This document shows, piece by piece, positions 15,502 to 31,925 of a DNA stretch of 64,000 nt. The notes under the pieces were generated by a model. That model made no database searches. It was not told the origin of the DNA and saw only the letters and a list, made by a program, of their open reading frames with translations. This DNA is from Candidatus Harrisonbacteria bacterium (GTDB lineage Bacteria > Patescibacteriota > Minisyncoccia > UBA6257 > 02-FULL-45-10c), in contig JACROC010000005.1 in the NCBI GenBank assembly GCA_016214655.1, positions 131,078 to 195,077 on the forward strand, in the 5' to 3' direction. Position 1 is the stretch's first letter; every line of letters starts with the position of its first letter. Made by a program: the position numbers and the translations under genes.

Positions 15502-15508
15502 AAATTTA

Positions 15509-15898: not shown

Positions 15899-16376
15899 CC
15901 AATTTATTTACGATATCCTGCAACGTCCATGGCTTCTCTTCCGCCGCGGCCTTTTTAAAACCGGAAACATCTATCAGCTTCAGCCGCAGACCCCAGAACA
16001 TTGAATAAATTTTATAGGCTTGCGAAAAGACTTCTTGCGCCTCGGTTTTTTTATTTTCCGAGTGAAGTTTAGTGCCGACTTCAATAAGTCTCATGGCAGT
16101 TGCAAGTAAATGCTTAGAAATACACCAGGTTTCTCCCTCGTGTTTATCAATCATCTTTCCTAGCAATACCTTTCTGATCGCGCGGGCATCATTTAGCAGA
16201 TCAAAATATTCCGGCTTACCAGTTTTAGCTCCCGTGAAAAAGAAATGTTCTTCCAAACTAATCAGGTTCATGACCGCAATACTCAAATCCTCTTCCGTTG
16301 ATAAATCGATTTGTCCAGATTTCTTCAATGCTTCAATTTTTTTAATCAATGCTTCCAAATTTTTTTGATTATCCAT
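15879..16376 (-). CDS. cytoplasmic helical protein ending in DCCDE
   Basis: 165-aa ORF with no TM helix and a C-terminal vicinal Cys pair. It overlaps the downstream gene by 20 nt. Confidence 0.5.
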   Translation of the reverse strand: MDNQKNLEALIKKIEALKKSGQIDLSTEEDLSIAVMNLISLEEHFFFTGAKTGKPEYFDLLNDARAIRKVLLGKMIDKHEGETWCISKHLLATAMRLIEVGTKLHSENKKTEAQEVFSQAYKIYSMFWGLRLKLIDVSGFKKAAAEEKPWTLQDIVNKLVDCCDE

Positions 16377-16382
16377 ATCAAT

Positions 16383-17210
16383 TTACAAAAAGAAAATTAA
16401 TAAACCCAAGACGACCATTGCTATGCCTCCCCAAAGACGCATATTATGGGTTTCTGCCTTTTTCCATTCCTGCACCTTAGCCAAAAGCAATTGATTGCTT
16501 GCAATCAGCAGAATGATAACTAATGGCAAAATGAAAATCGCGTTATATAGAAGGAGATAGCCAAGACCGCTGATAAATGTCGCTTTATCATGCAGCAAAC
16601 CAAGAATCATCAGATACGGTCCTCCAGTACAAGGAAACTCGCATAACCCGACTAAAACACCAAGTAAAAAGGCCGTTGGCGAAGACGCCTTTTCCATTAA
16701 TTCTGCCATTTTATGATGCGCCGCCTGCGGTATCCGCAATTTGACCGGAAAAGCCGGGAAAAACTCATTCATCAGATTAATCAATCCTAAAACCACCAGC
16801 AATCCCGCCCCTACTTTTGCCATAAAATGCGGGGTGTTAAAAAGATGAAGAACCTGCAAAATCCCGAGGCCGATCAAGATATAAACCAGAAAAATGCCGA
16901 ATATGTACATTCCGCCAATCTTAAGGATACCCGACCGCAGTTTACCGATACTAAGCAAAAAAGCGATCGTTAAAATTAGAATCGAAAAAGCGCAGGGATT
17001 AATACTATCTAGCAAGGAAGACACCAATACCAGAGGCAGCAGCCATTTCCCGCCATTGCTGAAACTCCACAAAAATGCCGTGCCGGCTCCGGTAAAACGG
17101 AAAAAGAAAAATAATCCGGCCAGCAAAATAACCGCCCCAACCAAAAATCCTAATTTTGATTTTGCATTATTGCCGCTTTGATTATTAAGCGGCTCATGAC
17201 AATTAGACAT
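16383..17210 (-). CDS. ccdA: cytochrome c biogenesis-type thiol-disulfide transporter CcdA
   Basis: Six-TM protein with DSINPCAF and CEFPCTGGPY motifs. Confidence 0.8.
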   Translation of the reverse strand: MSNCHEPLNNQSGNNAKSKLGFLVGAVILLAGLFFFFRFTGAGTAFLWSFSNGGKWLLPLVLVSSLLDSINPCAFSILILTIAFLLSIGKLRSGILKIGGMYIFGIFLVYILIGLGILQVLHLFNTPHFMAKVGAGLLVVLGLINLMNEFFPAFPVKLRIPQAAHHKMAELMEKASSPTAFLLGVLVGLCEFPCTGGPYLMILGLLHDKATFISGLGYLLLYNAIFILPLVIILLIASNQLLLAKVQEWKKAETHNMRLWGGIAMVVLGLLIFFL

Positions 17211-17231
17211 AGTTTTCGCAAAGATTAATTT

Positions 17232-17744
17232 CTACGGCCGGACCACTGCCGTAAATCCCAATTCAACTTCTCCGGAATCGGTTTCTACATAAACCGAGCG
17301 CTGGATCGGACCCACGCCAGCCGGACCATGCGCCGCCGGATCAAAAGTGGCTTCAATTCTTACTTCCTCGTCTCCGGAAATAACTTGGTTAATACGCGGC
17401 ACAACTCCATGCCCGGGCATGCCGAACGGCCCGCGAGCCTTCCCATCCTTCAGCATCAGCGTCGCCGTGGTGCACATGCAGGAAGTATAAATTTTATTGA
17501 TCGTCAGCGGATTCTCCGATCTATTTTTAAGAGTGAATACCTTGCTCACTTTGCCATCAGCCATAGAAATATCGCCAAAATCAAAATTAGACTCATCAGC
17601 AACTAATTTATTTTCCGAAACCGATGACACGGATGCCGTCTGAAGATTCTTGCTTGAAGAATCTGAAGATGCCAACCAAATAATTCCGCCAAAAACCAAG
17701 AAAGTAACGAGGGTGATTATAATGACTTCTTTGTAATGTTGCAT
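17232..17744 (-). CDS. DUF1573-domain exported protein
   Basis: Start moved to MQHYKEV. FDFGDI...FTLKNRSENPLTINKIYTSCMCTTA matches the DUF1573 pattern. Confidence 0.7.
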   Translation of the reverse strand: MQHYKEVIIITLVTFLVFGGIIWLASSDSSSKNLQTASVSSVSENKLVADESNFDFGDISMADGKVSKVFTLKNRSENPLTINKIYTSCMCTTATLMLKDGKARGPFGMPGHGVVPRINQVISGDEEVRIEATFDPAAHGPAGVGPIQRSVYVETDSGEVELGFTAVVRP

Positions 17745-17836
17745 AATAACTAAAAAATTAATTTTAAAAAAATAAAATGCCCCGTAAAAGGGGTTAGAGG
17801 ACGGCAAAACCGGAAGCTGTCGACAAACAACTCCGA

Positions 17837-18244
17837 TTAAGCGCCCGAAACTAACGCCGGACTATTCTCATGCAAAGCAATCCAACTGAGTAAAGGTTGA
17901 TTGATACTGCCCAGAACCACTGCCGCGCCCAATCTCCAAAAAGAATCTGAATGCGGCGAGACTAGAGATGCCGTAAAAGCTAAGCCAAGCAAAATAAAGG
18001 CCAATGCAGTTAGAAAAATCGAAGCCCAGCCCGCCACCGCTCTAGTAAAGGTGTGAAATGCCTGCATATGGAATCCAACCACCGCAAAAGGGTTGTTGCT
18101 TGTGCAAATCTTACCCTGAAGCATTTCGGCAACGCAGCCATGCCCATGAGCCATTGTAGAAAAACCAAAAATAGCAATAGCGGCAAGAACTACAATAAGA
18201 AGAATGGCCAGTATCGATTTCATATGATTAAAGTATACCACCAA
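17837..18244 (-). CDS. membrane protein with a His/Cys-rich loop
   Basis: 135 aa with 3-4 TM helices and MAHGHGCVAEMLQGKIC. Confidence 0.45.
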   Translation of the reverse strand: MVVYFNHMKSILAILLIVVLAAIAIFGFSTMAHGHGCVAEMLQGKICTSNNPFAVVGFHMQAFHTFTRAVAGWASIFLTALAFILLGLAFTASLVSPHSDSFWRLGAAVVLGSINQPLLSWIALHENSPALVSGA

Positions 18245-18264
18245 ATTAACTGTGACGCAAATTA

Positions 18265-19479
18265 CTATTCTTGCGCCTGATATTTTACCAAATAAACAAC
18301 TCCCGCTTTATCGTCGGAGATATAGATTTTTCCTCCGGGTTGGACTAAAATATCCACCGGCCGGCCGACTGCTGTCCCATCCGGGCGCAACCAGCCGGTA
18401 ATAAAATCTTCTTCGCCAAAATAAGCTTCCTGATTATCAAATTTATAACGCACAATCTTATAACCAGTCGGGACGCTGCGATTCCAAGATCCATGGTAAG
18501 CAACCAATAAATTGTGCCAATATTGCTGAGACCACCCCTCTTCTGGAATAAAAGCCAACCCCAATGGCGCCGAGTGCGCCGGAATATCTATATAAGATGC
18601 CGCCTCAAACGGCTCTGTACACGGGTTCCTAATATATACATTCCTATCAAACTCCGCGTCATGAACGTTTTTCCCGTAACAAATTGGCCAGCCGTAATTT
18701 TTCCCCTTTTCAATAATATTAATTTCATCCGGCGGCAAATCATCTCCCAATAGATCGCGTCCCATATCAGTTGCCCAAACCTTTCCGCTAACAGGATGCA
18801 AGGCCATAAATACCGAATTTCTGAGACCGGCCGCAAACCCCTTTAAATTGCCCCCATCCGCATCTGCAACCAAAATTTTTGCCCGCCGCCAATCACTTTC
18901 ATTGCACACATTACAGCCGGAACCGACAGAAATCAAAAGCTTATCATCGTTTGGCGGCGGTAAAAACATCAAAGTTCTGGTTACATGATTCCCGCCGCCC
19001 GGCAAATCGATAATTTTCCTTTTATTAATTGCTTTTAAGTCTTTATCATCGTAGTCATAAATTGCCACTTGGTCAGTTTCAGCGATATACAGCTTGCATT
19101 TTTCAGCGCATTTAAAAGCAAGCCCGTGCGGACGATTTAAATTTTCTATAACCGTTACAGCTTCATCCGCCAATCCATCTCTATTTTTATCAGGCAAAGC
19201 TACTACTTTCCCGGCCGAAGGAATGCTAACTAATAAATTTCCCCCTGGATCCCAAGCCATAACTCGCGGAGATTCCAAGTTTTGCGCAAAAACGGAAATA
19301 GAAAATCCGGGCGGCAATTGCAATGGCATACCGGTAGTATTAATAATTTTTGAAATATCCTCCGCCGGCTTATTAATAGCCGGGCCGATGCCGCGCAAAT
19401 TGCGCCAATAAAATATCCCAATCCAGACAACTAAAAACAATAAAATTATTCCAATTGCAATAAGAGAAAATCTTTTCAT
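18265..19479 (-). CDS. PQQ-dependent sugar (glucose/sorbosone) dehydrogenase-like beta-propeller
   Basis: Signal-anchor, GKNYGWPICYG motif, and repeated propeller blades. Confidence 0.75.
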   Translation of the reverse strand: MKRFSLIAIGIILLFLVVWIGIFYWRNLRGIGPAINKPAEDISKIINTTGMPLQLPPGFSISVFAQNLESPRVMAWDPGGNLLVSIPSAGKVVALPDKNRDGLADEAVTVIENLNRPHGLAFKCAEKCKLYIAETDQVAIYDYDDKDLKAINKRKIIDLPGGGNHVTRTLMFLPPPNDDKLLISVGSGCNVCNESDWRRAKILVADADGGNLKGFAAGLRNSVFMALHPVSGKVWATDMGRDLLGDDLPPDEINIIEKGKNYGWPICYGKNVHDAEFDRNVYIRNPCTEPFEAASYIDIPAHSAPLGLAFIPEEGWSQQYWHNLLVAYHGSWNRSVPTGYKIVRYKFDNQEAYFGEEDFITGWLRPDGTAVGRPVDILVQPGGKIYISDDKAGVVYLVKYQAQE

Positions 19480-19482
19480 GAT

Positions 19483-20082
19483 TTAACTTAGGTATTCATA
19501 AAACTCCGGCCAAGAATGAATTTTTTTATAAAAGTCTGTTTCCGGGAAAACCCGGTGGCGGTCAAATAAAAATCTATGCCTCACATCTGCCAATTTTTCC
19601 AATACCCGCCTTTCATCGTCTATATAATGAGTTACCCCGAATTCAGCGGCCTTAATATTTTTGTCTTCCGGCTCAACTACAAAAAAAGTATTTTTATCAT
19701 TGAAATATTCAGGCCATAAACCACGCTTTTCCAAAAGCTTCAGCGCTTGAACGGTGCTTTTTCTCCTGGAAATCAGCAGATAATCAATCTTATTTTTTTG
19801 GAAATTATTAAGCATGGATTTTGCGCCCCGCATTAAAGGAGACAAAAGCGATAATTTCGGATCTGAATATAACAAATGCTGCAATTCCCGCCAGCGCCCT
19901 TCAGGCAAAATCTTATTCATTACCTCGGTTGGAGTGTCTTTTGGCAACAAATTAAAACCCAATCTTTTCGCCAAACGGATTTTTAAATCAGTATGGTCAA
20001 CTAATACCCCATCCAAATCAAGCCCAATAACCATATTGATATTCCTCTTTGACATAAATGAATTTTGCCTTAATATTAACAA
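19483..20082 (-). CDS. HAD-superfamily phosphatase (5'-nucleotidase-like)
   Basis: The DLDGVLVD motif I follows the internal Met (MVIGLDLDG), so the true start is probably at that Met. Confidence 0.6.
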   Translation of the reverse strand: MLILRQNSFMSKRNINMVIGLDLDGVLVDHTDLKIRLAKRLGFNLLPKDTPTEVMNKILPEGRWRELQHLLYSDPKLSLLSPLMRGAKSMLNNFQKNKIDYLLISRRKSTVQALKLLEKRGLWPEYFNDKNTFFVVEPEDKNIKAAEFGVTHYIDDERRVLEKLADVRHRFLFDRHRVFPETDFYKKIHSWPEFYEYLS

Positions 20083-20110
20083 TAAATCAGCACCTTAACA
20101 AAACGGAAAT

Positions 20111-20830
20111 ATGGAGAGAGAAGCTGCCTTTGAAGAAAAGGCCAAGAGAATACTCGCATATCTGAAAACCGATCTCCGCTATGACGAAAAATTCCTGCCT
20201 CGGCCGTTTTTCCTGGAATTCACAGGGTCTCCTTCGGCCGGAAAAACCACTACCATTACCGAACTAGATAAATTTTTCCGGCGGCAAGGTTTCCGCGTGC
20301 TACGACCACAGGAAGGCGCTGAAGTTATCCGTCACATTTCCAGAACCACTCCGCTTTATAATATACGGACCGGCTTATATGCTCTGGAACTCTTAATTGA
20401 CCTGTCCAGCAGCCACCAGTATGACATTGTCATTTTCGACCGCGGAATATTCGATGTTTATTGCTGGATGATGTACTGGGAAGAAAAATTAAGGCTAGCT
20501 GGAAATCAAAAAAAATTAATCCAGTCATTTTTTCTGTCCCAGTTCTGGGTGGATAAAATCGATGTCGCCTATTTCATGATCGCCGATCCGAAAATCGCAA
20601 TGGAGCGCGAACTCCGCATTGCGCTTTCTAGCAAGCTAGGAGAAACCACCAATCCCAAAACTATTCAAACTCTGGTAGAAAGATACCGAATTGCCTATGA
20701 ACAGCTTTCGCCCCAATATCCTCAGCTCCACCTTCTGAATACCACCGAGATATCGGAACAAGAAATGATAGAACGGGTTGCTATCAATGTTTTGAATATC
20801 CTGGAACAAAAAGCAAAAAACAGCCGCTAG
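20111..20830 (+). CDS. P-loop NTPase / nucleoside(nucleotide)-kinase-like protein
   Basis: Walker A GSPSAGKTT and a Walker B-like IVIFDRG. Confidence 0.6.
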   Translation: MEREAAFEEKAKRILAYLKTDLRYDEKFLPRPFFLEFTGSPSAGKTTTITELDKFFRRQGFRVLRPQEGAEVIRHISRTTPLYNIRTGLYALELLIDLSSSHQYDIVIFDRGIFDVYCWMMYWEEKLRLAGNQKKLIQSFFLSQFWVDKIDVAYFMIADPKIAMERELRIALSSKLGETTNPKTIQTLVERYRIAYEQLSPQYPQLHLLNTTEISEQEMIERVAINVLNILEQKAKNSR

Positions 20831-20840
20831 GCTGTTTTTT
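20815..20840 (+). terminator. rho-independent terminator
   Basis: aaaaaaCAGCCgctaGGCTGtttttt, overlapping the stop codon. Confidence 0.6.
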
Positions 20841-20844
20841 AAAT

Positions 20845-21027
20845 CTATCTGGACTCTCGCCACAAGCCCCAGCCAAGAACCGCCGCCGCTAAAAAAGCGG
20901 CTGCGCTGGCCCAAAGCGGAATTTCCACGCCGCCGATTACCGCCTCCCAGCCATAAACTAAGCGCAGTCCATGTAATAAAGCGATAATTCCAAAAATAAC
21001 GGCAGTTAATTTTAAAAATGTTCTCAT
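20845..21027 (-). CDS. small 2-TM membrane protein
   Basis: 60-aa hydrophobic ORF. Confidence 0.4.
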   Translation of the reverse strand: MRTFLKLTAVIFGIIALLHGLRLVYGWEAVIGGVEIPLWASAAAFLAAAVLGWGLWRESR

Positions 21028-21105
21028 AATATATTAATTAGAAATCAATTTTCCGGCCTTTATTTAATTTTAACACTAATTTCTCTAATCCTGTTATTAA
21101 TATAA

Positions 21106-21948
21106 TCAAGACAGAATCACAAAAAGATAAGAAAGCAGGGCAGCCAAAAAATATAATAACAAACCGGCTGACCAGCGGGATGGAATAAAATTCTTAGCCA
21201 GGATATACAATGCGACAGTACTCATGGCAAAAGGTATAAAACCTATATAGCCGTAAACCGGCATCTCAAAAATATGCGGCGCATCCGGAAGAATAATATA
21301 TTGCCATTTCCCGCCAGCCCAATAATTTAAAAATTCCCAAAGAAAACCGCCGGTTAATCCGGTAGCTACCGCCAGCCACCAAAAATCTTTGTTGATAGAT
21401 TCCCTTGGGCCGCTGACAAACGGCAACAGCATAAAAAGAGGCCCTAACCACATCAGCTGATTCAAATAAAAATTGTTGCTGAAAAGCGGCAGAACTAAAA
21501 AAATCCATCCGATGGACATAAAGACAACCGGATATCTTTTTATTAAACTCAAATTTTTCTCGGAAAACGGCAACCGTTCCACCGGACCGTTTAAAAACCA
21601 AAGAATCTCTACGATAATCGGTATCACTGTTCCAAATGATAAAATCGAAAGCGGAACCCGGATCCAAATTCCGGAAATTATCCCCGCATAACCCCATTGC
21701 GGATATACAACATTGACTAATTCATAATAAAGCCAAAAAAGCGTGGATAACGGTAAAAGAATTAAAAAGAATTTTTTTGTTTGATTATGAATAATAGATT
21801 GCTTCCACTTCCAGAAATTAAGCGCATCAATAATAAAAATAATCCCCCACCAAAGGATGGGGTACACTACCGCCGAAATCACGCCGAAAGAAAATAACAA
21901 AACTGCAACGCCAAAAGTAACTAGAATCAAACCGGCTAGAAATTCCAT
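21106..21948 (-). CDS. polytopic membrane protein
   Basis: 280 aa with about 8 TM helices and no recognised motif. Confidence 0.5.
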   Translation of the reverse strand: MEFLAGLILVTFGVAVLLFSFGVISAVVYPILWWGIIFIIDALNFWKWKQSIIHNQTKKFFLILLPLSTLFWLYYELVNVVYPQWGYAGIISGIWIRVPLSILSFGTVIPIIVEILWFLNGPVERLPFSEKNLSLIKRYPVVFMSIGWIFLVLPLFSNNFYLNQLMWLGPLFMLLPFVSGPRESINKDFWWLAVATGLTGGFLWEFLNYWAGGKWQYIILPDAPHIFEMPVYGYIGFIPFAMSTVALYILAKNFIPSRWSAGLLLYFLAALLSYLFVILS

Positions 21949-21958
21949 CTTAATTTAA

Positions 21959-23347
21959 TTATACCCCAAATTTATTTTTATCTTCCCGGTTATAAAGCAA
22001 AGCCCAATCCTGCGAAGCATTTCGCAAAAAATCGCCTAATTTTAAGCTGGACGGCTTTTCAAAATCTTCTTTACTGATAGTATGTAATTCAATGTTACGG
22101 AAAGGATAAGATGAAGAAGGGCCTAAATAACTGCCAATCGCATCATGAATTAACTTTTCCTCCTGGCCATGCGGACCTTTTAAAAACCCATTTAAAGATT
22201 GCAATAAATCCCATCTAGTTTCTACCACTGCCAAAATATCAATATCCGATTGCAATTGCTTATAGCCGCGCGGGATACTCCCATAAAAATAAACTTTAAC
22301 CAGACTCCGGCCAAAAGAAGATTTTAACTTTTCCAGGATGGAATGCAAATCTTTATCCACCTCCGGATCCACCAATATTTCTGAACCTAAATTTATATCT
22401 TCTTGTCTTTGGATTTTCACTCCGCCAGCCCACCTGGTTGGCCGGCCGCTGGCCAAATCTTCCATCACCCTCCTTTCATTAAGCTTTTGCGGTAATTGTA
22501 AAACCACCTTCCCGTCCGCCAGCGATAATTCTTTCGGGACCTCTTCAGCTGGCGCCTGCTCCAAGACTTTCAGTAGCGACTCCGGATTCTCCCGTAAAAT
22601 TTCTTCAAAGATGGGGAGATTCTCCAGTAAAATTGTCCTGCTGATAATTCTTAATAAATTGCCGTCCTGATATTCACCGGCAACAAAAATCGTCTCATTA
22701 TTTCTATCGCGCGACTGGACTTTAATAAAAGAAACTAATCTGGAAGGATCTTTTTTAGAGACTACAATGCCATGCGTGACATAATCAATAGATTTTTCTC
22801 CAAACTCCGGCTGGGCATCTTCCCGGAAAACAGTCTCAATAATCGGATCTTTCTGGCCAACATTTAAATAGTTATATTGCTTATGTTCTTCTCCTTTGAG
22901 ATTAGATCCGGTTACAATCCGCGAAAGCCACACTTCCCGCTTCTCCTTAACTAAATCCGAAAACTGGGACTTCTGCCTAATCTGAAGATTTTTAACATCA
23001 AAGCCCGCATCGAATTCGGGCGGATTTCCTTCAGCCGCTCCCAGAAAAGAAAAAAATAAGTGCGGGGAATCGCCGCGATTGCTCTTAATAATCACGTATT
23101 CCCTTTGGGAAAGCGGGTTAATAAAAGACTTGCGATTAACTTTTCTGCCCACATACTGATACGGATGCCTTTCGGAACCTGTCTCCTGGGCCATTTCTGC
23201 CCTGGTAACCAATTGACGGGCTGGCAAAGCTTCATAAGGAATTTTAAAATCAGTGCCAGCTAAAACTTCCGGCATTAATTTTTTATTAAGCTTTTCCCAA
23301 AGATTCTCTTCGGGTGATTCTTTTATTAAAGTTTCTTCTTTAAACAT
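21959..23347 (-). CDS. protein with a C-terminal minimal nucleotidyltransferase (Pol-beta-like) domain
   Basis: VKVYFYGSIPRGYKQLQSDIDILAVV is the G[SG]-x(9-13)-DxD NTase signature. The ~340 N-terminal residues are unassigned. Confidence 0.6.
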   Translation of the reverse strand: MFKEETLIKESPEENLWEKLNKKLMPEVLAGTDFKIPYEALPARQLVTRAEMAQETGSERHPYQYVGRKVNRKSFINPLSQREYVIIKSNRGDSPHLFFSFLGAAEGNPPEFDAGFDVKNLQIRQKSQFSDLVKEKREVWLSRIVTGSNLKGEEHKQYNYLNVGQKDPIIETVFREDAQPEFGEKSIDYVTHGIVVSKKDPSRLVSFIKVQSRDRNNETIFVAGEYQDGNLLRIISRTILLENLPIFEEILRENPESLLKVLEQAPAEEVPKELSLADGKVVLQLPQKLNERRVMEDLASGRPTRWAGGVKIQRQEDINLGSEILVDPEVDKDLHSILEKLKSSFGRSLVKVYFYGSIPRGYKQLQSDIDILAVVETRWDLLQSLNGFLKGPHGQEEKLIHDAIGSYLGPSSSYPFRNIELHTISKEDFEKPSSLKLGDFLRNASQDWALLYNREDKNKFGV

Positions 23348-23350
23348 AAA

Positions 23351-26300
23351 TTAGCCGGCCGTTAATTTACGGAATATGGCTAAAATATCATCTCGCCTTT
23401 GCGATAGGGCTTTTTTTAAATAACCGGCCTCACCGCCCGCTTGTATTGCTTTAGAATAAGTATTAATAGCGGCCTCAGTTCTTATCCTGTCAGCGCCGGA
23501 CAAATCAGGCAGATCATTTTTTAAATCCCCGATTCTTTCCTGCAATGCCTTGATAGACCCTTCACCGTCCAAAAAACCCGCTTCGTCAATTACTGAATGA
23601 ATAAACGCGTCATCGATTTCCTCAAAACGCTTTAATATATTCTCTAATAACAATTTATTTTTTACAGTCACCTGGCCGTTTTTAATCTCAATTAAACTAT
23701 AGTATGCCTCGTTAACCGGTTTGCCCGCAAATTGCGGATTCGCTAAAATCTCTTCCAGCTGCTTAATGGTGAAATGCTCATCAAAGCCCTTATGTCCGCC
23801 CCGCGCCCGGGAAAAAAGACTGGCGCCATTATCAATAAAAGCTACTCCGCCATCCTTAGAAAATAGCAGGTTCCAGGGAGTCCGGTCGTATTGTCCAAGC
23901 AAGGCATCCACCAGCAGCCCCGCTTGAATTTTAGGATTGTTATGATGCTCTTCGGGCAAAGTAATCCCGCCCTCTCTCCAGCCTTCTAAAAATTCCATTT
24001 TTAATTTTAACTTTCTCTCTAAAGAAATCAATTCGGTTTTGGGAACCCTTATTCCAACTCGCTCCAAAAACCTCTGGCCGACAAAATCTGCCCGCACTGT
24101 ATGTTCCGGCCCGCCTTTTAAGAGAAATTTCCTTTTCTGGACATCCTCCCAAACTTGAATCATGTGCGTTCCGATATAATTGCCCCTCAACTCCTGAATA
24201 AAATGAAGGCCCTTAATCGGATTTTCCCGGTCATACTTAATCCGCATTTCCGGATTCAAACGCGGCGCAAAATTCCGAAAAGAAGAATGTTCCGCGGTCC
24301 AGGCTTTTAATTGCTCGTTAACTGCCCTGGGTTTTAATTCCGGCTGCAACTTCCCTTTTTCATCCAGTACTAACATTCTAGGCTTATCAATTGCTTTTGG
24401 CCGGTTCTCAAAACGTTCGATTGAATGAACTTGCTCACTGCTACCGCGTCGTTTTCTTGAGAGTTCTTTTCTCCCCATCATGGCGGAAGAAAATAATTTA
24501 ATTTTTTCATCAATAGCCTCGCGCGATAAAGATACTCCACCGGCTTCTGCCAATGATTTAATTGCGATTTCCGGCACCGATCCCCGAAAACCGGAATCCA
24601 CAAAGGTAAATTCCAAGGTCACGCCGTTTTGCTTTAAATATTCCGCGATAATTTTCATCTCTTGAATATCCTCGCGAGCCCTCTCTTTCATCGGACTGGT
24701 AATAACAACATACTTAATCTTTTTAGTTTTTAATCCCAATTCGCCGGCTTTAAGCGCGGTAAAAAAATAACGGCCGTCTCTTCCAAAAATAGCCAGCCGA
24801 TCCGCTCCAAAATTCTCCAGTTTTTCTTTGGCTTCCCAATAAAGCGGCACGTCTTCTTCTTCCAAAGTTTGGTATAAATTTAAATTTACCTGATATTGCC
24901 TGGCAATTTCCTGTAATCTTGCAAATGACGGTCCGGTAATCGGCAAAATATTTTCTCTTTCCCGCGAAAGCTGCAGATCGGTAAGATTATGAGAAAGATC
25001 ATTGGCAAGATACCAGCGGATTTTTTCTGCCAATAATTGCCGGAAGTCCGGTATTTGCCGGCTTTTTTCCAGAGATGGGTGATAAAGCATAAATGCCTTA
25101 GCGCTTTCCGGAAGCTTTGGCTCTTCCGCTATTCCCTTTTCCGAAATCTGGCCCTGCAATTCGCTTAACTGCCGGAAAAGCCCGATCATAAAACCGATTT
25201 CTTTCGGATCGGCAAGTTTTTCCGCCGAAACGCTTAAAAATTCTTTTAAGAATCCGATTTCAGCCACTGCGTCATTCGGACGATTTTCTAAATTCGCCAA
25301 ACTTAAAGCTCTGGCAAAAGCCAGCGCGGCCATACGATAGCCATCTTCAGAACTAATTTGTTCCGGAAGCTTAGTTTCCGCAAATTCTTTAGAAATGATT
25401 CCTGAAAGAAAATTTAAATAATCTTCCTGCTTCTCCTTGCCAGCGGCAGAAACCGTTGCCAAAAGCCCGGCTAAATAGGTATCACGATTTACCTCCGCCC
25501 CCTGTTCCGCCCTGGAAGTAAAACGGCCGTAAAAATTAAGAAATTTTCCTCTTTCCCATTCGCGTGACCGGGCGGCAAGGCCAAAACTAGATTCGGAAAA
25601 ACCAGTTGGCTCTTCTTTTTCCGGCATCCCTTGAATAACATCTCCGTGATAAATCTGCTCCGGTTCCAATTCCTGCCCCCAACTCCAATCGCTCTGTTCT
25701 ACAGACTTTTTCGGCTCTCCGGCCGCCACTGCTTTTTTATACTCTTCCTCTAAATTCTTTAATCTTTGCGCCTCTGCTTTTTCATTAAATTCATCAAATA
25801 CTAATTTGAGGGGGGCGTAATATGATTGTTCGCTAAATAAAGCCGCTTTTCTTTTTTCAAACCATCCGGAAAAAGTCTGATCTTCGTTAGCCAGCGTTTC
25901 TAAAATTTCTTTAGCCCCGTCTCCGAGAACTGACTTTAAGGCGCGGGCGGCTTCTCCTAAATCGCCGTCTAAAAATACTTTTCGTTTATATTCTTCCGAA
26001 GTGGCATTTTTTATAAAGCGGGTAATCGCTTCAGTGACAGCCGGATCTTTTTGGCTCGCAAAAAATTCTAAAATAACGTGCTGAGCGCTTCCATCCGCAC
26101 CAGCCCAGACAGTCTTATGATTCAATAATCCTCCAAGGGTAACCGGCGCATTTTTATATCCTAAAGATTTATAAATCCTAATATGTTCACACAGACTATA
26201 ATAACTAGCTTCACTGCCCTGGTCAGCGATTTTTTTAATTTTATCTTCAAAAAATGTTTCAAAAGCCGCTCCGCTTTTTTTCATTTCAAACCATAACCTT

Positions 26301-26536
26301 CGCGCCTCCAAAAGCTTTCCCGCGCCATATATATTGGAATGGCTCCAACTAGCCAAAAAACTATCAAAATTGCTTTGCTTCTCCAACTTTACCGATACAG
26401 GATAATGAAGAGAGTCGGCTACTAAAAATTCAAATTTTCCGATTTCTTCTGGAGACAATATCCCGGCTTCCAGTTTCTGCTTTTCAGATTTTTCTTTCTT
26501 GCCCGCTCTTTCTAAATTAAACGATCTGGTAGTCAT
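23351..26536 (-). CDS. 1061-aa multidomain protein: helical N-terminal half, HAD-like middle, protein/lipid-kinase-like C-terminus
   Basis: The C-terminus has FLLKGGPEHT, then DRTPWNLLFSKDGGVAFIDNGAS (a D-x4-N catalytic loop plus a DxG). The middle has IFGRDGRYF...FVDSGFRGS. Confidence 0.55.
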   Translation of the reverse strand: MTTRSFNLERAGKKEKSEKQKLEAGILSPEEIGKFEFLVADSLHYPVSVKLEKQSNFDSFLASWSHSNIYGAGKLLEARRLWFEMKKSGAAFETFFEDKIKKIADQGSEASYYSLCEHIRIYKSLGYKNAPVTLGGLLNHKTVWAGADGSAQHVILEFFASQKDPAVTEAITRFIKNATSEEYKRKVFLDGDLGEAARALKSVLGDGAKEILETLANEDQTFSGWFEKRKAALFSEQSYYAPLKLVFDEFNEKAEAQRLKNLEEEYKKAVAAGEPKKSVEQSDWSWGQELEPEQIYHGDVIQGMPEKEEPTGFSESSFGLAARSREWERGKFLNFYGRFTSRAEQGAEVNRDTYLAGLLATVSAAGKEKQEDYLNFLSGIISKEFAETKLPEQISSEDGYRMAALAFARALSLANLENRPNDAVAEIGFLKEFLSVSAEKLADPKEIGFMIGLFRQLSELQGQISEKGIAEEPKLPESAKAFMLYHPSLEKSRQIPDFRQLLAEKIRWYLANDLSHNLTDLQLSRERENILPITGPSFARLQEIARQYQVNLNLYQTLEEEDVPLYWEAKEKLENFGADRLAIFGRDGRYFFTALKAGELGLKTKKIKYVVITSPMKERAREDIQEMKIIAEYLKQNGVTLEFTFVDSGFRGSVPEIAIKSLAEAGGVSLSREAIDEKIKLFSSAMMGRKELSRKRRGSSEQVHSIERFENRPKAIDKPRMLVLDEKGKLQPELKPRAVNEQLKAWTAEHSSFRNFAPRLNPEMRIKYDRENPIKGLHFIQELRGNYIGTHMIQVWEDVQKRKFLLKGGPEHTVRADFVGQRFLERVGIRVPKTELISLERKLKLKMEFLEGWREGGITLPEEHHNNPKIQAGLLVDALLGQYDRTPWNLLFSKDGGVAFIDNGASLFSRARGGHKGFDEHFTIKQLEEILANPQFAGKPVNEAYYSLIEIKNGQVTVKNKLLLENILKRFEEIDDAFIHSVIDEAGFLDGEGSIKALQERIGDLKNDLPDLSGADRIRTEAAINTYSKAIQAGGEAGYLKKALSQRRDDILAIFRKLTAG

Positions 26537-26580
26537 TTTTTTATGATAATACCATAAATTTTATTAATTGGCAAATTTAT

Positions 26581-26901
26581 TTAGCTGATTTTAGTTCCGG
26601 GCAACACTTCTTTGTCCGGCATAAGTATAACCGGACCGCCTTCATCACTTGCCGCCAAAAGCATCCCCTGGCTTTCCAATCCCATCAGCATTCTTGATTC
26701 AAGATTGGCAACGATCACTATTTCCCTGCCAAGCAAAGATTCCGGTTCATAAACCCTGCCTACGCCGGCAATAATCTGCCTTTTTTCCTCGCCTAAATCA
26801 ACCTGCAATTTTAACAACTTATCCGAACCCTCAACCTGTTCTGCCCCCAATATTTTTGCCACCCTTAACTCTACTTTTTGAAAGTCTTCAAAATTAATCA
26901 T
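26581..26901 (-). CDS. tRNA-binding domain protein (CsaA/Trbp111/MetRS C-terminal type)
   Basis: FEDFQKVELRVAKIL...EKLLKLQVDLGEEKRQIIAG...LVANL pattern. Confidence 0.8.
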   Translation of the reverse strand: MINFEDFQKVELRVAKILGAEQVEGSDKLLKLQVDLGEEKRQIIAGVGRVYEPESLLGREIVIVANLESRMLMGLESQGMLLAASDEGGPVILMPDKEVLPGTKIS

Positions 26902-27262
26902 TATTAATTTTATAACAAAAAATTTGCCTTAATTCAAAAGTTAGAAAACTATATTCGCCTAACAAAAAACTTAATACGCATTAAAATTCATACCCTGTCA
27001 ATTAAACAAATTTGCTTTATAAGATAGTCAGCACTCCAAACTCAAATTAAGAGCAGGTCATGAAGCGCCTCTCCGGACTGAAAATAGCTTCATTCGGACC
27101 GACCGCAGAAGATAAACTGGAATTATAAAGCCCTTCGAGGCTTTTTATTTATGTCCTTAGATTATTAAGGCCTATTGCCAAAAATAATATACTGGCATAT
27201 AGTAATATGCTTGCTCGGGTAATACGGGCAAGCGTACGTTGACAAAACAAGGAGGCAACAAA

Positions 27263-28336
27263 ATGACGGAAAAGGAAAATATTGAGGTAGTTTTCTCATT
27301 TGATACCACCGGTTCAATGTATCCCTGCCTTAGCCAAGTAAGACAAAGAGTTGAATGGGCGGTCAGAAAACTTTTCAGCGAAGTTCCGAATATCCGTATC
27401 GGAATTATCGCCCATGGAGATTACTGCGATAAAAACAGCACATATGTCGTTAAAAAGCACAATCTTTCCAGAGATGCGGAAAGCCTTTGCAGATTTGTAA
27501 GAAACGTTGAGCCGACCGGTGGCGGCGACGCCCCCGAATGTTATGAGCTGGTGCTTCACGAAGCGCGGTCGCTTGACTGGACTCACGGTAAATCTAAAGT
27601 CGTAGTACTGATTGGCGACGATGTGCCCCATGGCCCGAATGAAGCCCAAAATTATAAAAAACTGGATTGGCGGAACGAAATCAATTTGCTCCTGGAAATG
27701 GGAGTAAATGTTTATGGCGTCCAAGCGCTTAACCGCTCTCATGCTACCCAATTCTATCGGGAAATCGCCCATAAAACTGGCGGCTATCATCTTACTCTTG
27801 ACCAATTTGCCAGCGTGACGGATATGCTTCTTGCGATCTGCTATAAGCAGGCCGGATCCGCGCAACTACAGGCATGGGAAAGCGAAGTTGAAAAAAGCGG
27901 CCGTATGAACCGCAATCTGGACAGCGTCTTTGCAACCCTCTCTGGACGAAAAGCCAAAACCCGCTATGCAAGAGCAAGAGACTTGGAAGCTGTGCCGCCT
28001 GGGCGATTTCAGGTCATGACCGTTGATGAAGACCAGGTTATTCGCGACCTCGTGGAAGATAATGGACTTCTTTTCCAAAAAGGACGAGGATTCTATGAAC
28101 TCACTAAGGCCGAAACAATCCAAGGATACAAAGAAGTTGTTCTTATGGATAACGCGACTGGCGATTTATACACCGGCGCCAAAGCGCGCCAAATGCTAAG
28201 TTTACCCGAAGGCGAGACGGCCAAAATAAGGCCAGTAGTGCCGGATGGATTCACTGCCTTTGTACAAAGCACTTCATATAATCGCCGGTTGGTCGGTGGA
28301 ACCAGATTCCTATACGAAGTTGATCTATCAAGATAG
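27263..28336 (+). CDS. von Willebrand factor A (vWA) domain protein with an unassigned C-terminal domain
   Basis: Start moved to the ATG preceded by AAGGAGG. MIDAS-like FSFDTTGSM, then the GGGDAPE and VVLIGDDVPH strand pattern. Confidence 0.65.
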   Translation: MTEKENIEVVFSFDTTGSMYPCLSQVRQRVEWAVRKLFSEVPNIRIGIIAHGDYCDKNSTYVVKKHNLSRDAESLCRFVRNVEPTGGGDAPECYELVLHEARSLDWTHGKSKVVVLIGDDVPHGPNEAQNYKKLDWRNEINLLLEMGVNVYGVQALNRSHATQFYREIAHKTGGYHLTLDQFASVTDMLLAICYKQAGSAQLQAWESEVEKSGRMNRNLDSVFATLSGRKAKTRYARARDLEAVPPGRFQVMTVDEDQVIRDLVEDNGLLFQKGRGFYELTKAETIQGYKEVVLMDNATGDLYTGAKARQMLSLPEGETAKIRPVVPDGFTAFVQSTSYNRRLVGGTRFLYEVDLSR

Positions 28337-28364
28337 AAAAATATTAGCTCGACTCTGTGTCGGG

Positions 28365-28712
28365 CTATTTTAATTCCATCGCAATCAAGCCGGACTTTCT
28401 AATTTTTTCTTTATAGTCCGGGAAGGTGTAATACATTTTTTCTAATTCTTCCCCCGATCTTACATTCGGATTTATTTGCTTGGCTTTGTATTTTTTAAGA
28501 AGCGCAGTAATAGTCTTAAAAACTTTGACTCTCTTAATTTTCTTTTCCAGTTTATTTTTACCGCAAATTAGTATCAGCGTATCCCCCACTTTTATATTTT
28601 TGTATCTTTCGGTCGCGGCCCGGGTTTCCACAGTCTTTCGTCCGCTTTTAACCGCCTCAAAAATATCCCTATCCACTTCACGAAATTTTAATTTTATTTT
28701 TTTATATTCCAT
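28365..28712 (-). CDS. ASCH-domain protein
   Basis: FEAVKSGRKTVETR...IKVGDTLILI is the typical ASCH N-terminal pattern. Confidence 0.55.
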   Translation of the reverse strand: MEYKKIKLKFREVDRDIFEAVKSGRKTVETRAATERYKNIKVGDTLILICGKNKLEKKIKRVKVFKTITALLKKYKAKQINPNVRSGEELEKMYYTFPDYKEKIRKSGLIAMELK

Positions 28713-28814
28713 AACATTATTGTAATTATGATCTCACACATTGACAATAACCGGAAATTTTGATAATATATAGTCACGTTCGTTAAAATCACTAACCTAA
28801 CAAAGGAGAATGAA

Positions 28815-29093
28815 ATGGAACATGAACGCTGGCCGAAAGATACAAAAGATACGCTCTACATCGAGAGTAGCTACAACAGCATTAATCTCGGAGAACTCTG
28901 GGGAAAAATCCAACTTAAATGGCCCAGCATCACTATGAAGGAATTGGAAATCACTGCGGAACACATCCATACCGACCATCTAAGTTATGACTTGTACGAC
29001 TCGAGCGATTATACTAACTTCCTCTGCATCACTGCTTCTCCGGAGTACTTCAAACGAACCGCCAAGCCGGAGGTCCTGACCGCGACAAAATGA
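28815..29093 (+). CDS. hypothetical protein
   Basis: 92-aa ORF with an upstream TTGACA-N17-TAATAT promoter, an AAGGAG site and a downstream terminator. Confidence 0.4.
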   Translation: MEHERWPKDTKDTLYIESSYNSINLGELWGKIQLKWPSITMKELEITAEHIHTDHLSYDLYDSSDYTNFLCITASPEYFKRTAKPEVLTATK

Positions 29094-29102
29094 TATTCAC
29101 CC

Positions 29103-29140
29103 AAGCACCCGTTGCATACGCAGCGGGTGCTTTTCATTTC
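29103..29140 (+). terminator. rho-independent terminator
   Basis: AGCACCCGttgcatacgcagCGGGTGCTTTT. Confidence 0.6.
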
Positions 29141-29151
29141 TAAATGAATAA

Positions 29152-29736
29152 CTAACTATCTAAAACCTCACCAAGTAATTTTTTAAGTAACGCCTTAGGT
29201 AAGCCCATAACGCTGTCTTTAGTTCCCTTAAACCCTTTAAGATATGGATCTAAAAGCGGATGTTCGGTGATAAAAGCCCCGGCGGAATTAAGAATATCTT
29301 CATCTTGAGATAATTTTTCTATAACCTCATCCGGAATCGGGTCAAAATACGCCGTGGCAATATCCGTGCCCTTAGCACTTTTACCGTTTGCGGTATTGGT
29401 AACCAGTACCGAACTGTAAGTCGAGGGCGGATACTGCGCATAACTTTTTAAAAATTCCTTCGCCTGCTCCGGATCATTCGGCTTTTCCCGGATTTCTCCG
29501 CGGCACACCACCACCTGATCGGCAGTTATTAAAATATGCGGTTCCTTTACCCGCCTCTTCAGCTCCTCTGCCTTTGCCTCGGCTAATGCCTGAGTTAATT
29601 TAGTCGGATCATCAAAACGTATCATCTTCTCATCAATTCCGGGCGAAATAGCCTCAAACTCGTAACCCATTTCTTCAAGCACTTTTTTCCGCCACTTAGA
29701 AGAAGAACCTAAAATTATTTTCATATCCATACTCAA
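29152..29736 (-). CDS. maf: Maf-like nucleoside triphosphate pyrophosphatase
   Basis: IILGSSSKWRKKVLEEMGY.FE start and the ADQVV..G.I.EKP motif. Confidence 0.85.
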   Translation of the reverse strand: MSMDMKIILGSSSKWRKKVLEEMGYEFEAISPGIDEKMIRFDDPTKLTQALAEAKAEELKRRVKEPHILITADQVVVCRGEIREKPNDPEQAKEFLKSYAQYPPSTYSSVLVTNTANGKSAKGTDIATAYFDPIPDEVIEKLSQDEDILNSAGAFITEHPLLDPYLKGFKGTKDSVMGLPKALLKKLLGEVLDS

Positions 29737-30515
29737 TATTTAAATTCTAAAAATAACGGTGCGTGGTCAGAAGCCATATCCGGCAAAACTTCAAATCGCT
29801 CTACGTTAATATCAGGCGAAGTCAGAACATAATCTGCGAAATTCGGTTCACTGGGATTTTCATAATGCCGATATAAAGGCGTGCGCGTAGATTTAATTTT
29901 ATAATCTTTCACCAGATTACGCATTCCTTTTTCTAATATCTTCAGCGATTCAGTATCAGGAAGCAGATTAAAATCGCCGCATAATATTTTAGGCCCATCA
30001 AAGCCGTCTAAAAATTGCTTAATCCGTTTGGATTGGCCGATCCGTTCAGGAGTATCAGTTTTTGGGCCATTATTCCAAAGACCGTGATAATTCGCAATCA
30101 GCATCTCGCGACCATTTAAGTCTAAAGTAATATATTGCAACTTGCGCGCTGAAAATACGGCGCTACCCGTTTCTTTGGGCTGTTCCGGTTTATAAACTAT
30201 AAAATCTTCGATTGTCTTAAGCGGTACATCCTGGCGCGCAAACACTGCCAAACTCATCCGATTCGGGTCGTCATCAAAATAAGCAAATGACCCCTCAAAA
30301 CCCTTCAGCTCTGCAGAAATTTTATCAAATAGCGGACCGTGTAAATGCTCATCCGGATGCCGCTGATCAGCAACCGCTTGCGGACTATTCCGAACTTCCT
30401 GCAGACAAAATATATCCGCATCCCCTGCCCGCCTGCGAAAAAATCGCATCAGCGGATGCAACGCCCGACCGCTCCAAGTATTCAAAGAAATTAGTCGTAT
30501 AGATTTATTTTTCAT
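29733..30515 (-). CDS. endonuclease/exonuclease/phosphatase (EEP) family protein
   Basis: LSLNTW...CLQEV, GDFN and SDHAPL motifs. Confidence 0.75.
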   Translation of the reverse strand: MKNKSIRLISLNTWSGRALHPLMRFFRRRAGDADIFCLQEVRNSPQAVADQRHPDEHLHGPLFDKISAELKGFEGSFAYFDDDPNRMSLAVFARQDVPLKTIEDFIVYKPEQPKETGSAVFSARKLQYITLDLNGREMLIANYHGLWNNGPKTDTPERIGQSKRIKQFLDGFDGPKILCGDFNLLPDTESLKILEKGMRNLVKDYKIKSTRTPLYRHYENPSEPNFADYVLTSPDINVERFEVLPDMASDHAPLFLEFKY

Positions 30516-30711
30516 TTTTCTTTCTCTTTATATATCGCGCCAATTCAATGACCAATCCGATTGGTAAACTGACTGCCATCATTATTCCAAAAAAATTAGA
30601 CGCCAGCTTAAAATGCCCTCCGGTTATAACCGCGAAAACCACAAAAACGACCCAACCCGCTGCTCCTATTATCGTTAAAATTGTCCAAAATAATAAGTTC
30701 CGCATTTCCAA
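30505..30711 (-). CDS. small 2-TM membrane protein
   Basis: 68 aa. It overlaps the EEP gene start by 11 nt. Confidence 0.45.
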   Translation of the reverse strand: MEMRNLLFWTILTIIGAAGWVVFVVFAVITGGHFKLASNFFGIMMAVSLPIGLVIELARYIKRKKNEK

Positions 30712-30978
30712 CTATTCCAGCGAAATAATCTGGATTCCATTTTGTTTAATCTGCTCTTCTGGCCAAAACAACTTATCAATCTTAAATTTCCCGATATAAG
30801 TGACTTTCTTTTCCTTTTTCCTGCCGGTATATTTTCCTATCTTGGGATCCCATTCTTCTAAAACCAGAACGTCGCCTTCTCCTACTTCAAAGTCATCTAA
30901 TCTCAATTCATATTTCTTTTTCCCGGAAGCTACCGCATCAAAATACTCCGGCCAGATTTTTTTCTTTATAATAGACAT
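30712..30978 (-). CDS. ASCH-like / DUF3850-like small protein
   Basis: KIWPEYFDAVASGKKKYELRLDDFEVGEGDVLVLEEW pattern. Confidence 0.55.
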   Translation of the reverse strand: MSIIKKKIWPEYFDAVASGKKKYELRLDDFEVGEGDVLVLEEWDPKIGKYTGRKKEKKVTYIGKFKIDKLFWPEEQIKQNGIQIISLE

Positions 30979-31069
30979 ATTATTTACACTATAATATTAC
31001 ACGATTCTTGATTGTTACGGCAAAATTTTATTATAATTAAAATTAGTTAATTGGCATTACTCGATAAAA

Positions 31070-31276
31070 ATGAAGAAGCGATGTCCGCGATGTAAGAGAG
31101 CCTTAATTGATGTCACCGCTGTCCGAGGAGTGTTATATTGCGAAGAATGTCCCTATTATCAATGTCCGAAGTGTAATAGCAAAATGACGGAGACTGGTAG
31201 AAGAGTGTGTGGTCATGCAGATTACCTAAAACTGAGGTGTACTAGGTGTGGCCACAGAACGGAGATCGAAAGTTAA
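31070..31276 (+). CDS. double zinc-ribbon protein
   Basis: Four CxxC pairs in 68 aa, followed by the terminator AAGCCCaaacGGGCTTTTT. Confidence 0.5.
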   Translation: MKKRCPRCKRALIDVTAVRGVLYCEECPYYQCPKCNSKMTETGRRVCGHADYLKLRCTRCGHRTEIES

Positions 31277-31316
31277 CGTAACCCCCCACAGAAGCCCAAA
31301 CGGGCTTTTTCTTTTC

Positions 31317-31667
31317 TCAGCGGCCTATGGCCCATAACATTCTGTCCGCATTGATTATCTGTTTCCCTATAGCTCCCGCAAAAAGTCGGTAGGCCGGACG
31401 CTTTTCTTTTTGATAAATGACTCGGATCCCTATCAAAGTTTTACACTTTTTACAGACCAAATCCTTTCCGTAGAACTCCGGGTTTACAATTCGGTCAATA
31501 TATAAACGCTTTAATATTCCGGGACCGTCTTTTTGATATGTCAATAATGGCTTTTTGCATTTTTCACAAAAAATGAGCAGCCATCTAGAATAACTGCCTC
31601 TGACTCTCTTAAATCTGTCATTCTTGAATTTTAGTGCTCTATTTTTCATAACATTTTTATACCTCAC
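31317..31667 (-). CDS. zinc-ribbon protein
   Basis: CEKCKK...CKKCK pairs in a basic protein. Confidence 0.45.
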   Translation of the reverse strand: MRYKNVMKNRALKFKNDRFKRVRGSYSRWLLIFCEKCKKPLLTYQKDGPGILKRLYIDRIVNPEFYGKDLVCKKCKTLIGIRVIYQKEKRPAYRLFAGAIGKQIINADRMLWAIGR

Positions 31668-31873
31668 AGCATTTTAAACAAAAGCTCATTTAATTCGCGC
31701 AATCGGGATTCTAAAACATAAAGCTCAGAATTAGCCTGGTCGAATGCCGAGTTCTCGTGCCAGCCGCCGCCTTCACGTATTGCCTCTCCCCTTTCCCGTA
31801 ATTTATTTTTTATCTTATCTTTTAAATCTTTTATTTGATTTTCTAAATCTATCCTATTATTTATATTTTCCAT
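31664..31873 (-). CDS. GreA N-terminal-domain-like coiled-coil mini-protein
   Basis: Start moved to MENINN to avoid a 65-nt overlap with secA. GGGWHENSAFDQANSELYVLESRLRELNELL resembles the Gre-factor coiled-coil tip region. No C-terminal globular domain is present. Confidence 0.45.
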   Translation of the reverse strand: MENINNRIDLENQIKDLKDKIKNKLRERGEAIREGGGWHENSAFDQANSELYVLESRLRELNELLFKML

Positions 31874-31925
31874 GGCACTTTTTATCCCGCAAAATTCGCT
31901 TCGCTTATCGCGGGATTGCGAGATA

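Follow-up and report, generated by a model that had tools for sequence, protein, structure and literature searches.

In a 64,000-nucleotide stretch of contig JACROC010000005.1 of Candidatus Harrisonbacteria (hereafter the window), two adjacent genes on the minus strand encode a large protein of 1061 amino acids (aa) and a small protein of 462 aa, and here we describe this gene pair, its relatives and its possible function. The two open reading frames (ORFs) are separated by a 3-nt spacer (TAA ttt ATG), as an earlier annotation by a model that saw only the letters (the sequence-only reading) had described. The large protein is 100% identical to a hypothetical protein from a Candidatus Harrisonbacteria metagenome-assembled genome (MAG; Patescibacteria/Parcubacteria group). 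The motifs quoted in the sequence-only reading are all present in the large protein, namely IFGRDGRYF (aa 583-591), FVDSGFRGS (aa 645-653), FLLKGG (aa 803-808), DRTPWNLL (aa 884-891) and FIDNG (aa 900-904). The ~560-aa helical N-terminal half that it proposed stands only in part, as module C, one of the four modules listed in Table 1, begins near aa 481, and the model, which starts there, shows β-hairpins as well as helices in the first 55 residues of this module. A hydropathy scan found no hydrophobic segment or membrane anchor in either protein of the pair.

Table 1 Features of the gene pair and of its surroundings (positions in the window)
Feature	Position	Strand	Description
Large gene	23351..26536	-	1061 aa, ATG start; modules A-B-C-D
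Module A	25667..26536	-	aa 1-290, N-terminal
Module B	25097..25579	-	aa 320-480; kept within the family
Module C	24257..25096	-	aa 481-760; predicted PRPP-dependent gPRT/CriT-like domain, conserved family core
G585-R586-D587	24776..24784	-	candidate counterpart of CriT loop 1; invariant in 21 sequences
D647-S-G649-F-R-G652-S653	24578..24598	-	candidate PRPP 5-phosphate loop, compared with CriT E818...T825 and the PRPP loop of classical PRTases; D647, G649 and G652 invariant
Module D	23354..24256	-	aa 761-1061; putative PI3/PI4-kinase-like domain plus helical tail
K807	24116..24118	-	module D key residue
D884-N889	23870..23887	-	module D key residues
D902-G904	23825..23833	-	module D key residues
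Small gene	21959..23347	-	462 aa, ATG start; directly downstream of the large gene
Small-protein N-terminal domain	22358..23347	-	aa 1-330; mostly meander β-sheet
Polβ-type minimal nucleotidyltransferase domain	21962..22357	-	aa 331-462
G356-S357...D368-x-D370	22238..22282	-	nucleotidyltransferase motif residues
E420	22088..22090	-	nucleotidyltransferase motif residue
Promoter-like site TTGCCA-17-TATTAT, extended TG	26546..26574	-	in the 44-nt gap upstream of the large gene
280-aa polytopic membrane protein gene	21106..21948	-	10 nt downstream of the small gene
Terminator-like hairpin	20814..20841
AAA_28 P-loop gene	20111..20830
VWA gene	27239..28336	+
ASCH gene	28365..28712
EEP gene	29733..30515

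An exhaustive profile search with the large protein, run against 1.84 billion cluster representatives, returned 234 relatives, 59 of them below 1e-30, and revealed the modular build of the protein (A, B, C and D). A word-indexed search with the large protein found only P0002 (50% identity), and one with the small protein found 14 relatives; repeating the former with an alignment of 21 sequences added only a 457-aa A+B fragment (P0045). A second pair was found on an unrelated metagenome contig, where the large protein is 50% and the small protein 47% identical to those of the window, and this diverged pair together with the 234 relatives shows that the genes are real. The large gene lies directly upstream of the small gene in all 15 loci with upstream DNA (the window plus L001-L003, L005-L008, L010, L011 and L017-L021, some of which possibly represent one population sampled twice), and in the loci with called gene coordinates the two genes overlap by up to 8 nt or lie up to 23 nt apart. 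Moreover, the pairwise identities of the large and small proteins correlate (r = 0.85; exact Mantel 29/720), so that both the adjacency and the co-variation that the sequence-only reading had proposed to check were found. The two genes are therefore a conserved, co-diverging two-gene unit in bacteria of the candidate phyla radiation (CPR).

The named carriers of the pair are Harrisonbacteria, Saccharibacteria and Yanofskybacteria, and every locus among the 15 that could be assigned to a taxon belongs to CPR bacteria. The unit is rare: a survey of 185,579 species-representative genomes yielded only four loci, which belong to Saccharibacteria, to a genome of Yanofskybacteria and to an unclassified bacterial MAG. 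No pair was found in IMG/VR; searches of the phage, plasmid and IMG/VR collections returned no relatives of the small protein and, for the large protein, only a D-like match in phage ST4. In eight contigs with flanking DNA that were compared with the window, the pair has no further conserved neighbour; the flanks vary by locus and hold genes for ribosomal proteins, EF-Ts, SSB, SmpB, tRNA synthetases and the like. The large protein gave nothing significant in Pfam, NCBIfam, PADLOC, PHROGs or PDB sequence searches, in agreement with the earlier statement that the pair matches no named system.

Two architectures of the large protein occur. A-B-C-D is found in four of the 15 loci, the window included, and A-B-C-C′ in the other 11, where C′ stands in place of the kinase-like domain. 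Among close relatives the identities of the two proteins can diverge, with L003 and L006 sharing 0.79 for the large and 0.67 for the small protein and L005 and L006 sharing 0.66 and 0.90, respectively, and these discordant values suggest recombination between the two genes. In two Candidatus Yanofskybacteria loci (L011 3522..3905 and L021 3545..3934) the small gene is cut to ~127 aa with loss of its nucleotidyltransferase (NTase), and the upstream 1105-aa large gene is intact. One small-protein homolog with a C′-type large partner (P0012; L007 379..2682) carries a 300-aa N-terminal extension whose motifs 'FRHARSEY' and 'ITHGE' resemble those of histidine phosphatases; we did not adopt that identity, as a PDB sequence match is lacking.

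The invariant columns of the full-length alignment of 21 sequences lie nearly all in module C, which marks C as the functional core and D as an exchangeable accessory. The predicted model of module C (pLDDT 91.3) shows the catalytic fold of glycan phosphoribosyltransferases (gPRTs), a phosphoribosyltransferase (PRTase)-like α/β core with helical bundles, at 12-16% identity to solved gPRT structures. In the CriT domain of Bcs3, which transfers ribofuranose-5-phosphate from phosphoribosyl pyrophosphate (PRPP) to a polymer hydroxyl, the PRPP site is composed of loop 1 (S678-R679-D680, contacting the PRPP β-phosphate and the ribose) and loop 3 (E818...T825), with D680 and E818 standing where classical PRTases have the DD motif (PMC10299916). 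In our model, G585-R586-D587 is located at the end of a β-strand, before a helix, and D647-x-G649-x-x-G652-S653 takes a strand-loop-helix position at a later strand, in the same order as in CriT. From this motif order, and from comparison of the model with the published description of CriT rather than from superposition, we infer that the GRD and DxGxxG[ST] motifs are equivalent to loops 1 and 3. E710, an invariant glutamate that aligns with a conserved glutamate of C′, is a candidate general base. By its fold and its conserved motifs, module C is predicted to be a CriT/gPRT-like PRTase. C′ is homologous to C (hhalign probability 96.5%, E 7.5e-10) and retains the RD and DxGxxG motifs, and profiles of modules A, C and C′ gave no significant matches to PDB sequences.

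The sequence-only reading had likened the middle of the large protein to HAD-like hydrolases of the COG5610 type. This was not supported: the region is without the HAD motif (DxDx[TV]) and without a HAD Pfam match, and no HAD protein is among the 60 structure matches listed. Characterised gPRT domains do adjoin a HAD phosphatase, in the 'gPRT + PRP' bipartite ribofuranosyltransferases (PMC11127046, PMC11231755, PMC12096443), and this adjacency may explain the association. At a separate locus (L014 91..9084), three consecutive paralogs of ~1000 aa each end in module C, with a 4-nt overlap and a 2-nt gap between them.

The kinase-like C-terminus of the large protein, also proposed from the letters, was borne out by its conservation. 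In an alignment of 29 diverse relatives of module D, K807, N889, D902 and G904 show no variation, and conservation of D884 is at least 90%; these positions correspond to the ATP-binding lysine, the D-x4-N catalytic loop and the DFG-like metal-binding motif (D-x-G). Matches to PI3/PI4-kinases are sub-threshold: 11 of the 29 members match Pfam PI3_PI4_kinase (PF00454) at E values up to 1 (lowest 6.4e-5), and among the PDB profile matches those to the catalytic and activation loops of PI4KA, PI4KB and PI3K rank highest (E ~0.04). A few members match APH or HipA, with two relatives matching the APH family. A PI3/PI4-kinase-like nature of module D is therefore well supported by motifs, and its kinase-like fold is putative.

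Module D also occurs in giant proteins of 1.8-6.6 thousand aa (P0048, P0049, P0055, P0060, P0063, P0065, P0112 and P0113), many of which start with signal-peptide-like hydrophobic segments in a crude hydropathy scan, and one of these (L012) lies on an archaeal-looking contig with deoxyhypusine synthase and TrmB genes. A D-like domain is present at aa 634-824 (local E 1.6e-18) of the 1177-aa gp109 of Aeromonas phage ST4 (OR261032.1; L015 2099..5632), which is annotated as an 'ADP-ribosyltransferase' and whose gene adjoins a NUDIX hydrolase gene. In P0071, D is fused to an inositol-monophosphatase-family domain (E 2.6e-44), and in P0058 to a PP2C/SpoIIE phosphatase domain (E 3.8e-11); as hints to the target of D, a small molecule or a protein, the two fusions conflict. 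In L013 (6001..10930), a standalone D gene (347 aa) precedes a gene for 180 aa and one for a 1087-aa protein that matches PRTase-CE (27.2 bits, at threshold). A kinase is thus associated with a PRTase in a second, independent case; this PRTase-CE protein has no detectable similarity to module C, and a link between the two was rejected.

The C-terminal part of the small protein matches NTP_transf_2 with 21.4 bits over ~40 residues, just above threshold. G356-S357-x10-D368-I-D370 and E420 are invariant in 15 sequences and provide the hG[GS]-x9-13-D-h-[DE] signature with the third carboxylate; the predicted fold and the family model also place the domain in the Polβ superfamily of NTases (PF01909, ANT/MNT type). 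Hence the minimal Polβ-type NTase on an unassigned N-terminal domain, as read from the letters, is present with its fold and catalytic residues intact, and only the spacing given there for GS-x11-DID had to be corrected to x10. The nearest NTase structures are mostly antibiotic or sugar-hydroxyl nucleotidyltransferases (ANT, KNTase and LinB). The N-domain (aa 1-330) contains a strongly conserved, basic stretch near its start (aa 26-100) and has no detectable relatives in fold searches; a viral fold search with the small protein returned marginal matches to the NTase core only. Similarly, PADLOC models recognise the generic NTase core alone (PDC-S09, 33 bits), and the scores against MntA (14.6 bits, cutoff 60) and HalB (16.3, cutoff 190) lie far below the cutoffs.

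Module A stands alone at the N-terminus of P0047, P0074, P0081, P0087, P0089, P0099 and other CPR proteins of 530-1670 aa, where one constant head is followed by C-terminal regions from several unrelated, Pfam-dark families. A HEAT-repeat-like match of module A is non-significant (E 0.62), and the module is possibly built of HEAT-like repeats. Module B has no Pfam or PDB match, and Pfam scans of the giant D proteins and of the A- or C-bearing proteins were almost entirely empty. The recurrence of A, C and D with other partners is circumstantial evidence that they behave like catalytic modules shuffled among proteins with inter-organism or accessory functions. The P0047 gene (encoding 1671 aa; L022 3275..12748) lies between NadD-like, NrtR-like and NadE genes and an isochorismatase (PncA-like) gene; a link to nicotinamide adenine dinucleotide (NAD) metabolism was rejected, as the 39%-identical homolog P0081 (L023) is without such neighbours.

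Around the pair in the window, the promoter-like site upstream of the large gene is a consensus match only, and such sites are no commoner in the region than in shuffled controls. The gene for the 280-aa membrane protein downstream of the small gene is possibly co-transcribed with the pair in this genome only; the protein has no Pfam match, and its gene is absent beside the pair in every other locus compared. No Rfam elements or riboswitches were found around the operon. The sequence-only reading had placed the pair in an accessory neighbourhood. All the neighbours that it named are present (AAA_28 P-loop, VWA, ASCH and EEP), but Maf, SecA, GreA-like and tRNA-binding-domain genes lie in the same stretch, and the gene order is that of an ordinary compact CPR genome with no clear accessory island. 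The VWA protein of the window is 67% identical to a protein of L006 (11003..12088), encoded 1.7 kb from the pair there, an identity that exceeds that of the pair itself, and the C-terminal 135 aa of the window protein resemble phrog_26613 (E 1.7e-18). In L001, the gene directly downstream of the pair encodes another VWA protein, of 801 aa; it was rejected as a conserved third component, since no homolog lies beside the pair in the window. An APH-family phosphotransferase gene (34389..35156, plus strand, E 1.4e-14) is found ~8 kb from the pair and a weak NT5C/HAD-type 5′-nucleotidase-like gene (19483..20082, minus strand, E 1.8e-4) ~2 kb from it, and neither is conserved beside the pair elsewhere. 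GC skew is strongly and evenly negative throughout the window (1..64000; -0.06 to -0.24 in every 2-kb window), nearly all long ORFs of the window are on the minus strand, and no tRNA genes were found in it.

The function that we favour for the pair, at somewhat under even confidence, is that of an accessory, modular, PRPP-centred multi-enzyme that decorates an acceptor. Both genes would then give rise to one translationally coupled cytoplasmic complex with three group-transfer sites. Module C would take ribose-5-phosphate from PRPP and attach it through C1 to an acceptor hydroxyl; as no phosphatase partners the family, the 5-phosphate would stay on the product. Further groups would then be added to this acceptor or to the newly attached phosphoribosyl group: in the window by phosphorylation through the kinase-like domain D, in most relatives by a second phosphoribosyl group that C′ would add, and in both architectures by the ANT/MNT-type NTase of the small protein, which would transfer a nucleoside monophosphate to a hydroxyl or phosphate. 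Module A would serve as a shared N-terminal adaptor, and the β-rich, basic N-domain of the small protein would dock the acceptor or the large protein. Analogy to the acceptor-accessible site of CriT, together with the conserved basic patch, favours a polymer or macromolecule as acceptor, and the shuffling of modules makes an accessory role (cell-surface or inter-organism, in episymbiont-type bacteria) likelier than one in housekeeping metabolism.

Our confidence differs between the parts of this proposal. The fold assignments of the pair are very probably correct, and all three sites are likely to be catalytically competent; whether they act on one common acceptor we regard as evenly balanced, and a role in conflict or host interaction is put forward only tentatively. 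Several observations weigh against the proposal. The use of PRPP by module C is deduced from a fold and motifs at low identity, with no profile link to solved enzymes, and the PF00454 score of module D is 14.8 bits for the window protein and 22-24 bits for the best relatives, against a gathering threshold of 27.1. No HAD phosphatase is evident, either as a Pfam or NCBIfam match in the two proteins or as a conserved neighbour, and there is no glycan-assembly cluster (glycosyltransferases or an ABC transporter) at the pair, whose flanks are housekeeping genes that differ by locus. The loss of the NTase beside an intact large gene in one lineage indicates that the large protein can persist without it. 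In addition, the three sites may not share one acceptor, and the NTase could instead modify the large protein. Finally, the pair carries no secretion signal, stands in no defence context and matches no PADLOC system, so that these features lend no support to the conflict role suggested in the sequence-only reading, although elsewhere the modules behave like shuffled effector modules. A bolder form of the proposal, which we consider quite improbable, is NAD-independent 'ADP-ribosylation-like' marking of host or phage targets by episymbiotic CPR bacteria, which would be a new modification chemistry and in which module C would put the ribose-5-phosphate of PRPP on a macromolecule hydroxyl to give an ADP-ribosyl-type adduct, and the kinase or second-PRTase variant would then add phosphate or ribose-phosphate (short poly(ribose-phosphate) chains).

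Other functions were weighed against this accessory multi-enzyme. Dedicated glycopolymer synthesis, in which a ribose-phosphate envelope polymer (teichoic-acid- or capsule-like) would be built or terminated, with module C adding ribofuranose-5-phosphate and the kinase or second gPRT and the NTase extending, capping or activating it, draws on the fact that all characterised relatives of module C are glycan ribofuranosyl-5-phosphate transferases (Bcs3 CriT, Cj1432C, Klebsiella O4/O7 and 7SHG). Protein-kinase-like kinases also act in glycan termination (WbdD; PMC11231755), and the nearest NTase structures mostly nucleotidylate sugar hydroxyls. We nevertheless find it unlikely, given the missing HAD phosphatase, the lack of any conserved glycosyltransferase, transporter or glycan gene in the eight contigs compared with the window, the lack of a membrane anchor in both proteins and a very rare, patchy distribution; moreover, module shuffling is unusual for envelope biosynthesis. 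Another possibility is an effector and its enzymatic partner, following the logic of polymorphic toxins or of type VII toxin-antitoxin (TA) systems, where the large protein would be a toxic or host-directed effector with swappable warheads (kinase or second gPRT) that the NTase would neutralise or license by nucleotidylation (compare MntA on HepT). Module A is constant and the C-terminal regions vary, with D or C′ at the C-terminus within one family; D occurs in giant proteins with signal-peptide-like N-termini and in the phage ADP-ribosyltransferase protein; the partner gene is always directly downstream and co-diverges with the large gene, with the discordant identities among close relatives suggesting recombination; and the NTase matches the MntA, HalB and PDC-S09 models weakly. 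This explanation is doubtful all the same, since the best-conserved part of the large protein is C and not a variable warhead, the partner is large (462 aa) with a conserved extra domain, and other A- or C-bearing proteins have no conserved downstream partner gene. Retention of the large gene with a truncated partner in one lineage is unexpected for an essential antidote, and the pair contains no HEPN or other known toxin domain, matches no PADLOC system and has no defence-island context.

The formation of NADP proceeds through phosphoribosyltransferase, adenylyltransferase and kinase steps. The three predicted activities of the pair match these steps, and small-molecule chemistry could take the form either of a dinucleotide-like compound made by the logic of NAD(P) synthesis (PRPP ribosylation, adenylylation and phosphorylation) or of a multi-mode inactivation of an antibiotic or toxin, whose hydroxyls would be phosphoribosylated, phosphorylated and nucleotidylylated. 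The fusion of D to an inositol-monophosphatase-family domain in P0071, the match of two D relatives to the APH family and the predominance of antibiotic nucleotidyltransferases among the closest NTase structures are in line with it, but a ~480-aa non-catalytic scaffold is atypical of metabolic or resistance enzymes, the NAD genes near P0047 are not kept at the homolog P0081, and D is also fused with a PP2C protein phosphatase; we regard this chemistry as improbable. Least probable of all is that module C is a sensor binding PRPP or another phosphosugar as a regulatory ligand, with only the kinase and the NTase active, considering that both acidic residues proposed as counterparts of the CriT catalytic pair are invariant, as is E710, and that 11 of the 15 loci have a second C-like domain instead of the kinase. 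We therefore rank an accessory multi-enzyme acting on a polymer or macromolecule first, followed by an envelope-glycopolymer enzyme, an effector with an enzymatic antidote, small-molecule chemistry and regulatory PRPP binding.

To our knowledge, PRPP-dependent O-phosphoribosyl transfer to non-nucleobase acceptors first became known in 2022-2023, from the synthesis of capsules and O-antigens alone and always together with a HAD phosphatase. If our assignment is true, gPRT chemistry would extend to CPR bacteria, to a phosphatase-free setting in which the phosphate is retained on the product, and to a complex that has a kinase (or second transferase) and a nucleotidyltransferase as obligatory partners. 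An acceptor that is a host or phage macromolecule would make the pair a new kind of modification enzyme, and a surface polymer as acceptor would imply novel envelope chemistry in uncultivated bacteria. The analysis also provides first handles on a sizeable Pfam-dark block of sequence, namely the shared N-terminal module A and the kinase module D of phage and of giant proteins of CPR bacteria and archaeal symbionts, and both modules may be tools of an episymbiotic lifestyle. In the libraries and literature searched we found no description of the family, of its phosphatase-free gPRT-like core, of the alternation between kinase and second gPRT, of the obligatory NTase partner with its novel domain or of the restriction to CPR bacteria. 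The three folds are already known; the combination and the family appear to be new.

Comparison with known systems delimits the pair further. The HepT-MntA type VII TA system, Hailong HalB and PDC-S09 likewise include a minimal NTase in a two-gene unit and show weak similarity at the level of models, but the proteins of the pair are 4-10 times larger and the likeness is limited to ~50 residues of the NTase core. Compared with the ANT, KNTase and MNT enzymes (PF01909), the small protein adds a 330-aa β-rich N-domain and is without the helical C-terminal domain of the ANT enzymes, and it has no HEPN partner either. Module D shares the D-x4-N loop, the D-x-G motif and the upstream lysine with PI3/PI4-kinases (PF00454), APH and HipA; unlike PI3/PI4-kinases, it falls below the Pfam threshold and has its own conserved tail (NPQF.G.PVNEAY ... 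YLK.AL..RR). The bipartite ribofuranosyltransferases, comprising CriT of H. influenzae Bcs3 (PDB 8A0C), the T. composti enzyme (PDB 7SHG) and C. jejuni Cj1432C, contain the PRPP-dependent gPRT domain that is nearest to module C. In contrast to these enzymes, the pair is found in CPR bacteria without a HAD phosphatase partner and without a glycan gene cluster, and its module C is fused to modules A and B and to a kinase-like or second gPRT-like domain and is obligatorily paired with an NTase.

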